A DNA stretch of 64,000 nucleotides, from assembly GCA_963771045.1 (NCBI GenBank), contig CAVYRW010000004.1:672001-736000 (forward strand), in the 5' to 3' direction. This document shows, one piece after another, positions 30,712 through 32,389 of this stretch. The notes beneath the pieces are model-generated. The model searched no databases. It had not been told where the DNA came from and worked only from the letters and a program-made list of their open reading frames with translations. This DNA comes from Waddliaceae bacterium (GTDB lineage Bacteria; Chlamydiota; Chlamydiia; Chlamydiales; SLFE01). How positions within the stretch are numbered: position 1 is the first letter of the stretch; each line of letters begins with the position of its first letter. The translations under genes and the position numbers were made by a program.

Positions 30712-30793
30712 GATCCTCACAACTTTCCGGCTTTGTTGCGTAATTAACCACAGAGCTCACAAGAGCGCACAGAGAGAATATGAGAGATTTGAT

Positions 30794-31738
30794 TTAAGCT
30801 GCTATTAATTCACTTTCAGGCATTCCCAGCTTTGTCATTATATTTAGTGCTTCACATTTTGCCCTTGATTCAGCCCTTTGGGTTTCCAGAGTTCTACTTC
30901 TTAAATCATTTCCAAAGAATCGTTTAAATCTAAACATGGCTGTTTCTGCAAGTGATCGGCGATGATAACCTTTCAACTTTTTCCATAATTTTCTTGCATC
31001 ATCATCACCTCCTAAACCTGAAATTTCCAGCAAACTGATATTCCGCATCTTCCAAGAAGGAGATATGTTTTCTCGAAAAACAGCATTCCTATTGGGTGGA
31101 ATAATAGGAATTGAGCCGTGAACTACATTTGCAGCATAGCATCGCTTAGTATCATAAGCCCCATCTCCATATGTGCGCTTAACTGATTTCGGCATTACCT
31201 CGAGAAGTTTTGGATACACTTCACAATCTGCAACGTTATTTTCAGTAAGAATTTCGAAAATAATTTCGTGAGAGTCAGGGCAGACTGCCAGATGGAGCTT
31301 TCTCCATGTTCGTCTTTTACTGATTCCATGCTGCCTAACTTTCCATTCACCCTCTCCGTACACTTTCAAACCGGTTGAATCGATTACAATATTGGTGACT
31401 TTTTTTTTCGAAAGTTTCTTCAACTCTTGCCCCAACAACTTAGCTCTCCGACAAATTTGAGTATAAGAAGGAATCGATAAACCAACAGATAAAATCATAA
31501 CAAGAGATGTCAAAAATCCTTCGAGTGCTCTCAATGGAAGATGAAAAACCGATCGAATAATGAGCGCGGTGAGAATAGCGTCATCAGAATAGAGTTTTGG
31601 ACGCCCCTTTTTTCCTATTTCTTTTGGAGCCATCCACTTATTGATAGCATCTTCAGAAAACCAAACAGTTATGCTTCCCCTTTGAATAAGAGATTTGTTA
31701 TAGTCGTTCCAGTTGCGAATGCGATATTTTGCCTTCAT
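30794..31738 (-). CDS. IS903-group DDE transposase (intact)
   Basis: NWNDYNKSLIQRGSITVW, IDSTGLKVYGEGEW, WRKLHL, GDGAYD, GYHRRSLAETAM. Confidence 0.95.
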   Translation of the reverse strand: MKAKYRIRNWNDYNKSLIQRGSITVWFSEDAINKWMAPKEIGKKGRPKLYSDDAILTALIIRSVFHLPLRALEGFLTSLVMILSVGLSIPSYTQICRRAKLLGQELKKLSKKKVTNIVIDSTGLKVYGEGEWKVRQHGISKRRTWRKLHLAVCPDSHEIIFEILTENNVADCEVYPKLLEVMPKSVKRTYGDGAYDTKRCYAANVVHGSIPIIPPNRNAVFRENISPSWKMRNISLLEISGLGGDDDARKLWKKLKGYHRRSLAETAMFRFKRFFGNDLRSRTLETQRAESRAKCEALNIMTKLGMPESELIAA

Positions 31739-31822
31739 CTTGATCCTCCAATTTGTTGCAACTAAAAATTAGAGTATTAGGTATTTGTCGGCAAGCTCGC
31801 ATTCGCCCTTTTTGGAGAAAAG

Positions 31823-32230
31823 ATGACTAGTACCCACACAACTGAAGAAGCCAACCAAAAAAGAAATGACCTTTTAACAGGGGAAATCATAGGTGCTGCG
31901 ATTGAAGTTCATCGAAGATTAGGTCCAGGCTTGCTTGAATCGACATACGAAACTTGTCTTTGCTACGAGTTGAACCTTGCGGGTTTGAAAGTTAACCGGC
32001 AGATACCAGTACCTATTATTTATCGTGATAAAAAGCTAGACTCAGGCTACCGGATCGATATGATAGTGGAAGATAAGGTTATTTTGGAGATAAAATCTGT
32101 GGCCAATTTCTTGCCTGTTCATGAGGCCCAACTTCTATCCTATCTTAAGCATAATGGTGGTGGCAGAGGTTTGCTCATCAATTTCAATGTAAAACTTCTA
32201 AAAAATGGGATTAGGCGTCTAATCATTTAA
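31823..32230 (+). CDS. GxxExxY protein (PD-(D/E)XK nuclease-like)
   Basis: EVHRRLGPGLLESTY, YRIDMIVEDKVILEIK, AQLLSYLK, GLLINF; GGAG RBS. Confidence 0.93.
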   Translation: MTSTHTTEEANQKRNDLLTGEIIGAAIEVHRRLGPGLLESTYETCLCYELNLAGLKVNRQIPVPIIYRDKKLDSGYRIDMIVEDKVILEIKSVANFLPVHEAQLLSYLKHNGGGRGLLINFNVKLLKNGIRRLII

Positions 32231-32389
32231 TTCCTCTCTCATAATCTCTCAGTGAGCTCGGTGGTCTCAGTGGTGATTTATGCAACAACGCCCAACTTTC
32301 CCTGTGTTGTACGCAGGGGTAATAAAATCTTTATAAATTATTAATAATCTCAATATATAATTTATTTTAACTAACTAAAATTATAATGT

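Follow-up and report, generated by a model that had tools for sequence, protein, structure and literature searches.

A GxxExxY gene with its own repeat arms nested in a mobile IS903-group element of a Waddliaceae bacterium

Introduction

Why does an insertion sequence carry, between its own ends, a gene for a predicted nuclease that plain sister elements with the same ends do without? The question is raised by a locus in a Waddliaceae bacterium, where positions 30729-32292 of the window (the whole stretch of 64,000 nucleotides analysed here) are assigned to an element of the IS903 group (IS5 family) that carries a divergently oriented GxxExxY gene. In the sections of PMC3281130 that treat the IS903 group, its members are 1050-1054 bp long with 15-27-bp repeats and 9-bp duplications, and the portion of PMC3003695 cited here has IS903 transposing in E. 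coli with the transposase and the ends alone and provides an E. coli transposition assay for the group. The function of the PDDEXK_3 family, to which GxxExxY proteins belong, is listed as 'Unknown', with multiple transfers, in the corresponding entry of PMC3424549, and GxxExxY is mentioned once, in another context, in the cited section of 10.1101/2021.01.26.428298. In the literature that we searched (most subscription journals, ISfinder and supplements lay outside its scope), GxxExxY and PDDEXK_3 were rarely named and TIGR04256 not at all, and no description was found of the element, of a GxxExxY transporter IS or of the repeat arms reported below. A first-pass annotation of the locus had seen an IS903-type transposon whose passenger might serve as an accessory nuclease in transposition, maintenance or defence.

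Results

The element and its two genes

The features of the element and its flanks, in window coordinates, are as follows.

30720..30728, + strand: target-site duplication, left copy, CAACTTTCC
30729..32292, no strand: whole element, 1564 bp, 39.6% GC as compared with 44.6% for the contig
30729..30745, + strand: outer IS903-type inverted repeat, transposase-stop side, 14/17 identical to the other end
30746..30787, + strand: GxxExxY-type arm, three CACnGAG-like words and a purine-rich tail
30794..31738, - strand: IS5-family (IS903 group) DDE transposase, 314 aa
31766..31794, - strand: putative transposase promoter (TTGCCG, 17 nt, TAATTT), proposed from homology to plain sisters by alignment
31823..32230, + strand: GxxExxY protein, 135 aa, predicted PD-(D/E)XK fold (TIGR04256, PF13366)
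32235..32275, - strand: downstream arm of GxxExxY with three CACnGAG words, in opposite orientation to the arm at 30746-30787
32276..32292, - strand: outer IS903-type inverted repeat, GxxExxY side
32293..32301, + strand: target-site duplication, right copy

CAACTTTCC is read at both 30720-30728 and 32293-32301, on either side of the element, in agreement with the 9-bp direct repeat that the first-pass annotation had reported around 30729-32292. Its reading of an intact IS5-family transposase and a divergent GxxExxY gene separated by an 84-bp spacer likewise agrees with the coordinates and profile scores. The transposase scores 289 bits against NF033579 (cut-off 140), and D120, D192 and E265, as well as the set Y258/R261/E265/K272, are invariant across 39 transposase sequences. 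It is 46% identical to the transposases of ISSod12, IS903B and ISVa2; the best named plasmid transposases are 46-47% identical, and five transposases on viral contigs 41-47%. The profile score, the matching ends and the 9-bp duplications thus uphold the placement in the IS903 group with a passenger gene. Since the element measures 1564 bp with two genes (relatives 1555-1592 bp) and not about 1.05 kb with one, it is a variant rather than a plain member of the group. No IS end was seen within the element upstream of the transposase. This absence had been noted correctly, but the plain sisters put the expected place near 31832-31856 and not at 31790. The region of the putative transposase promoter aligns between the element and the plain sisters; a consensus promoter and terminator scan, which performed at chance level, did not pick the promoter up.

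The window GxxExxY protein is a full member of its family, with 147 bits against TIGR04256 (cut-off 35) and 141 bits against PF13366. The motif residues G36, E39 and Y42 are invariant in 113 GxxExxY sequences, in which the candidate catalytic residues E89 and K91 are also invariant and D79 is at least 90% conserved. A fold search with the predicted structure (model pLDDT 85) gave proteins of the PD-(D/E)XK fold as top matches, namely R.SwaI, Cas4 and Hjc resolvases, none of them standing out; the best match was generic, with a Z of 7.8 and an rmsd of 3.1 A over 113 residues. Foldseek returned no match to the model below an E of 0.001, and no solved structure related to GxxExxY by sequence was found. 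The protein is accordingly described here as a predicted nuclease of PD-(D/E)XK type. PADLOC gave no system match for it, the weak Cas4b and Cas4 matches (E 0.014-0.017, about 39 residues) being the only ones. An Rfam search of the element returned no match and no guide RNA family. A single 217-base RNA contig (run X20) on GxxExxY was not accepted as evidence of expression. The GxxExxY family is very large, with 7,949 of 8,000 scored candidates at E<=1e-20. Its presence is patchy among chlamydial genomes, 85 of 250 of which have matches, and the eight plasmid records are all below 60%.

Copies and target sites

The 1564-bp unit moves as one, with 9-bp target duplications. Full-length copies number 16 in the genome (G000) and are 99.7-100% identical; contig C4 carries 14 of them, and C1 and C3 have a single copy apiece. 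Perfect 9-bp duplications border 12 of the 16, and all 12 differ; the remaining four have no duplication, and one of these adjoins an IS256 end. Because of these near-identical copies with distinct duplications, the repeat flanking the window element is not a matter of chance. The earlier claim that both genes moved as one unit is borne out, and the further full-length copies with different duplications that were sought in its support exist. GxxExxY is intact in 16/16 full copies and the transposase in 15/16. Four further sites of the family (L008, L133, L039 and L040) have 9-bp duplications as well. In two salt-marsh runs the contigs span the element and, at its termini, break off into different flanking DNA; a third run holds one element end only, and an RNA run a short piece. 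The element is recently active.

Additional copies in the genome are less complete. A chimeric copy (C4:1701314-1704285) is 78% identical on the transposase side and 100% on the other, carries an IS256 with an 8-bp duplication inside GxxExxY and is flanked as a whole by ATTATATAT. A MITE-like remnant lies on contig C2. Among the 18 long copies, one (L003, C4:997659-998663) consists of the transposase gene and its promoter only and is without IS ends, arms, GxxExxY and duplication. The first-pass annotation had named copies ending near 31790 without GxxExxY as evidence against a two-gene unit; this single piece, which ends at the equivalent of 31805, resembles them but has neither the ends nor the duplication of an element. 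It has a new 17-residue C-terminus and lies upstream of a gene that we take to be gyrB-like.

Other repeats and split genes were noted along the way. Another multi-copy repeat is found no more than 400 bp away from six of the 16 copies, as compared with 6.5% of random positions in this genome. An IS4-family element (NF033591) directly adjoins the window copy at 29512-30711, and its apparent 9-bp duplication, GATCCTCAC, has a one-base overlap with CAACTTTCC; this IS4 recurs beside the C3 copy, which it abuts, and at a distance of about 40 bp from the chimeric copy. A separate IS903-like element of about 1.1 kb is present in four copies (C4:48248-49138, 400009, 956428 and 2230311), with a transposase 44-46% identical and without GxxExxY. 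Elsewhere in the window, 24118-27553 (presumably a long gene beside an outer-membrane protein gene) and 37380-38371 (presumably a flotillin-like gene) appear to be split into several frames by frameshifts or sequencing errors.

The ends contain GxxExxY arms

The element ends in imperfect 59-bp inverted repeats, 80% alike, each made up of an outer 17-bp IS903-type repeat and a CACnGAG word array. Between the two ends, the outer repeats agree at 14/17 positions; the repeat at 30729-30745 is also 14/17 identical to the ISSod12 end in L350 and is of the same type as in the plain sisters. The IS903-like termini of the first-pass annotation therefore hold for this outer part, but the inverted repeat extends about 42 bp beyond an IS903 end towards the interior, and the inner part, which had been overlooked, is the GxxExxY arm. 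The words of the arm at 30746-30787 occupy 30749-55, 30758-65 and 30768-74. No arm remains between the two genes, the second one lying beyond the transposase stop.

Of 72 transposases, 15 have arm words 3' of the stop, and every one of these belongs to the two armed (arm-bearing) transposase groups described below; the background is 0.008 per 110 bp. In the genome, 53 of 54 double-word matches fall within copies of the element. Mismatches number 2/138 at the CAC/GAG positions versus 17/48 at the variable positions, counts from a word-position test that is biased by its parser. No hairpin folding was found in the single arms tested (z 0.56, -0.81 and 0.83). Across ten elements, which include kin that are not independent and the G349 ends taken from two contigs, the arms are 87% alike within an element versus 76-78% between elements, and the outer repeats show no such excess likeness. 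At 75%, the two arms of the window element match each other less well than those of any other element in this set, and the one on its GxxExxY side is 94% like the corresponding arm of L166, as would be expected after a recent swap.

Repeats of other kinds were seen in or beside some arms. Long hairpin or tandem-word repeats, a 169-bp GGAC-type palindrome among them, lie near or in the GxxExxY arms of L036 (2754-3085), L266, L284, L285 and L288, and in L025 (G162) the upstream arm and the first 40 codons of GxxExxY are partly duplicated in tandem.

Relatives with and without the gene

Elements with both genes were found in other Chlamydiota and in metagenomes, with transposases 57-100% identical, and the family is assigned to the Chlamydiota. 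The two-gene layout is the same in G242, G349 and G285, at transposase/GxxExxY identities of 92/83%, 77/68% and 67/69%, respectively. In G249, which is of the same genus, the element is 99.7% identical as compared with 83-90% for the flanking host DNA, a difference that points to a recent transfer between species. The orthologous place in G249 has neither the element nor the adjoining IS4, in sequence that has diverged (83-90%). Of the empty sites that the first-pass annotation had hoped for, no exact one was found in relatives.

A genome scan gave 80 loci, 5 with GxxExxY and 75 without. The nine sisters with both ends are plain, 1089-1190 bp long and 54-61% identical to the armed element; they have the same ends and lack both the gene and the arms, and extended matching ends are also present in two of the nine. 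Their existence gives no support to the proposed part of GxxExxY as an accessory nuclease in transposition, maintenance or defence. Metagenomes scanned for the pattern of end plus arm gave at least 124 loci. Among the matches listed, 15 have both genes (13 distinct), 9 the transposase only, 12 GxxExxY only and 88 neither, the last group being made up of MITEs, solitary ends, ends of contigs and an unrelated, recurrent gut sequence. At least four metagenome elements are both-ended, at 1555-1592 bp, and among the matches listed at least 11 are MITEs, 64-298 bp long, whose 9-bp duplications agree at 8 or 9 positions. Two derivatives, L141 and L192, keep GxxExxY and have lost much of the transposase; the ends of L192 are identical over more than 50 bp. 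No intact both-ended armed element without GxxExxY was found among the elements examined, and the two gene-less transposase copies (C4:997659 in G000 and L010 in G349) are each without a proper end. Broken copies do occur, by the IS256 insertion in G000, by a stop at a contig end in G242 and as remnants.

GxxExxY cassettes outside the IS903 group

The IS does give GxxExxY a mobility context, as had been proposed, but not its only one, because free-standing genes have inverted arms of their own. Such arms stand above the shuffled background in 27 of 41 chlamydial GxxExxY rows (three of the misses are IS903-borne, and two of the matches are the G335 element described below). Of 40 rows from three other phyla, 33 have them as well; in these phyla the word, of CGCAAAG or CACGAA type for example, varies with the protein clade, and 0/40 rows adjoin an IS903 transposase. 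Most free-standing cassettes checked have arms without IS903 ends. Free copies sit among housekeeping genes (dxr-rseP, mutS-uvrC, tgt-tdk) at varied insertion sites, and a transposase neighbour was detected at 1/37 chlamydial loci and 0/45 others in a search with eight transposase queries, including one that was out of frame. The dxr-rseP interval is empty in a same-genus relative of G195; no junction or duplication of the free cassette was readable there at 72% identity.

The cassette of arm, GxxExxY and arm also lies in other IS types. In G487, a 58%-complete genome, it is part of a 1761-bp IS630 with 28 full copies (L372:1757-3517), and a 64% identical IS630 sister in G044 is without it. 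In G335 the complete cassette lies behind the transposase of a 1408-bp NF033580-type IS5 with six near-full copies (L362). In both carriers the arms hug the GxxExxY gene and not the IS ends. G000 itself has remnants of another, decayed NF033580-type IS5, with the upstream arm and the first GxxExxY codons inside its end, at these places.

G000 C4:832931-833624, also C2:74535 and C4:856675, 887980 and 1592582: decayed NF033580-type carrier (L398)

This is a second, older cassette carrier in G000. The end of the same element also precedes the cassette in G487 and L125, and its 840-bp sister in G271 is plain. Taken together, the IS903, IS630 and NF033580-type carriers amount to at least four separate unions of an IS with the cassette, and the borrowed IS ends in G487 and L125 imply that not every move needs the nuclease. 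As a separate observation, a 75% identical sister of the G335 element has a partial GxxExxY and more than 20 matches.

Module swapping and selection

The armed transposases form two supported groups of 13 and 3 rows (L029 counted as armed, L274 left out), and a single clade is rejected with a p-AU of 0.029. The arms of the second group match those of its free-standing sister GxxExxY genes. In the protein trees, IS-borne GxxExxY sequences are interleaved with free-standing ones, and a single clade is rejected for all IS-borne proteins (p-AU 2e-44), for the IS903-borne ones (2e-5) and for the main IS903 group alone (0.005). These are quick trees on 131-133 and 314 columns in which kin are not independent; nine near-duplicate, broken or long-branch rows (L001, L008, L039, L028, L120, L198, L121, L122 and L134) were left out of the second GxxExxY tree. 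Congruence of the transposase and GxxExxY trees, which had been looked for in favour of a joint history, does not hold.

Between elements, the dN/dS of GxxExxY is 0.03-0.16 in the 6/10 pairs for which it was computable and that of the transposase 0.06-0.12; the other four pairs are saturated for GxxExxY, with a low pN. These ratios indicate that GxxExxY is under purifying selection inside the element. Between G000 and G242 the transposase has a dS of 0.44 and GxxExxY one of about 3, whereas for L011/L190 the dS is equal in both genes (1.03 and 1.01), with a GxxExxY dN/dS of 0.067. The disagreement in some pairs and the agreement in L011/L190 mean that GxxExxY has been both swapped and, during co-inheritance, selected. 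The chimeric copy in G000 is a further instance of swapping.

Discussion

The element is a transporter IS of the IS903 group. With that group (IS903B, ISSod12 and ISVa2; ISPam1 and ISPpa8 of Paracoccus) it has in common an NF033579 transposase at 46% identity, outer ends 14/17 like ISSod12 and the 9-bp duplication, and it differs in its 1564 bp, its second, divergent gene and the arm of about 42 bp inside both ends. By the definitions of transporter IS (tIS) and mobile insertion cassette (MIC) given in the relevant passages of PMC9330008 and PMC3129680, the tIS likeness lies in one transposase, one pair of IS ends and a passenger gene inside, but the passenger here has its own repeat arms, is exchanged with copies that stand alone and turns up again in unrelated types of IS. 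A tIS passenger is unrelated to transposition; in this case the sisters lack the gene, yet selection on it persists inside the IS. The derivatives L141 and L192 are MIC-like, whereas the window element keeps its own transposase, and a MIC was ruled out by the transposase being intact in 15/16 full copies. The one transposase and one pair of ends rule out a composite transposon.

REPIN-RAYT systems, in the description found in part of PMC3116915, likewise place short inverted repeats on both sides of a gene for a small enzyme and include repeat pairs without a gene. GxxExxY, however, is predicted to be of the PD-(D/E)XK type and not a tyrosine transposase, a single arm forms no hairpin, and the cassette is nested in a DDE transposon. 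Identity with REPIN-RAYT was ruled out, as there is no HUH tyrosine transposase and the protein matches PF13366 only. TnsA does the strand cutting for Tn7, and TnpB aids element retention in IS200/IS605. The present element resembles both in encoding a (predicted) nuclease beside the transposase; it differs in that sister elements move without the nuclease and that no guide RNA family was found. TnsA is a PD-(D/E)XK protein in the corresponding entry of PMC3424549. Within GxxExxY/PDDEXK_3 itself, the distinction of the window protein is that it is amplified inside an active IS, and the value of the element is the nested GxxExxY cassette.

We favour, with a probability of about 0.6, the explanation that an IS903-group IS moves the unit and that GxxExxY is a captured selfish cassette, likely acting on its own arms and not needed for transposition. 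This explanation draws on the mobility of the unit, the structure of the family, the homology of the arms, purifying selection, module swapping and the occurrence of the cassette in other IS types. Based on its family and the duplications, the DDE transposase alone would cut at the outer 17-bp repeats and thereby move the unit. The most likely point of entry of the cassette lies between the left end and the transposase promoter, because the promoter is common to the plain sisters and the GxxExxY start occupies, in the alignment, the place of their left end. A copy of the left end and its arm would then have replaced the other end, the inner arm would have been lost, and the transposase gene would thereby lie between the arms; such end copying can explain the arm beyond the transposase stop. 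GxxExxY would bind or cut the arm arrays and so cause recombination, or exit and re-entry, with the effect that the gene stays intact while the IS amplifies and carries the cassette between species. A selfish, arm-bounded cassette would in this manner gain copies and host range from the IS. Several counterpoints apply. To judge from the 2/9 plain sisters with extended ends, end copying needs no GxxExxY. No intact gene-less armed element was found among those examined, and the equal dS and low dN/dS of L011/L190 would fit a benefit to the IS just as well. The poorly matched arms of the window element, the borrowed IS ends of some cassettes and the generic fold match also count on this side.

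A further-reaching proposal, which we hold only tentatively, is that GxxExxY and the CACnGAG arms constitute an undescribed class of selfish element, with a mobilising nuclease of the PD-(D/E)XK type, that became fused with IS903 into a transposon with two engines. The transposase would move the outer ends and GxxExxY would cut the arm arrays, and a homing-like conversion driven by GxxExxY would keep the gene in the element, match both ends and let the cassette leave again.

GxxExxY could also be a working accessory of the transposon that binds the subterminal arms and aids end pairing, strand cutting or element retention. The arms do lie directly inside both IS ends in 10/10 both-ended elements compared, the same layout arose in two transposase groups, the CAC/GAG positions are kept (subject to the parser bias) and no full copy has lost the gene. 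Against this, the plain sisters, which share the ends but have no GxxExxY, are mobile, the arms of the IS630 and NF033580 carriers keep to the gene, and GxxExxY is exchanged between elements, so we consider the accessory unlikely. We rate it no lower because selection persists in the IS, also during co-inheritance, and because no intact gene-less armed element was found.

Somewhat more doubtful still is a cargo that benefits the host (in defence or repair, for example) and owes its spread solely to IS transposases and borrowed IS ends, with arms that would be regulatory or act at the RNA level. Purifying selection, matches in 85/250 chlamydial genomes, the retention of the gene in L141 and L192 and the borrowed IS ends before some cassettes are all consistent with it. 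A host has, however, no need for sixteen copies of one beneficial gene, and the patchy presence, the varied insertion sites, the arms without IS903 ends on most free-standing cassettes checked and the PADLOC result (Cas4 at E 0.014) argue the other way. A recent neutral stowaway, with the long ends a by-product of end copying, would suit the 2/9 plain sisters and the broken copies but is very improbable, being largely refuted by the dN/dS of 0.03-0.16 in 6/10 pairs, the low pN in the other four and a layout kept down to 57-67% transposase identity.

The element is recently active and compact, and it places GxxExxY between a defined pair of arms inside an assayable IS group; with the existing IS903-group assay, the function of GxxExxY becomes a with/without question. 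If the captured cassette has indeed repeatedly boarded unrelated IS types, it would be a clear case of element-within-element evolution. The element thus offers a testable handle on a widespread, little-studied protein family.
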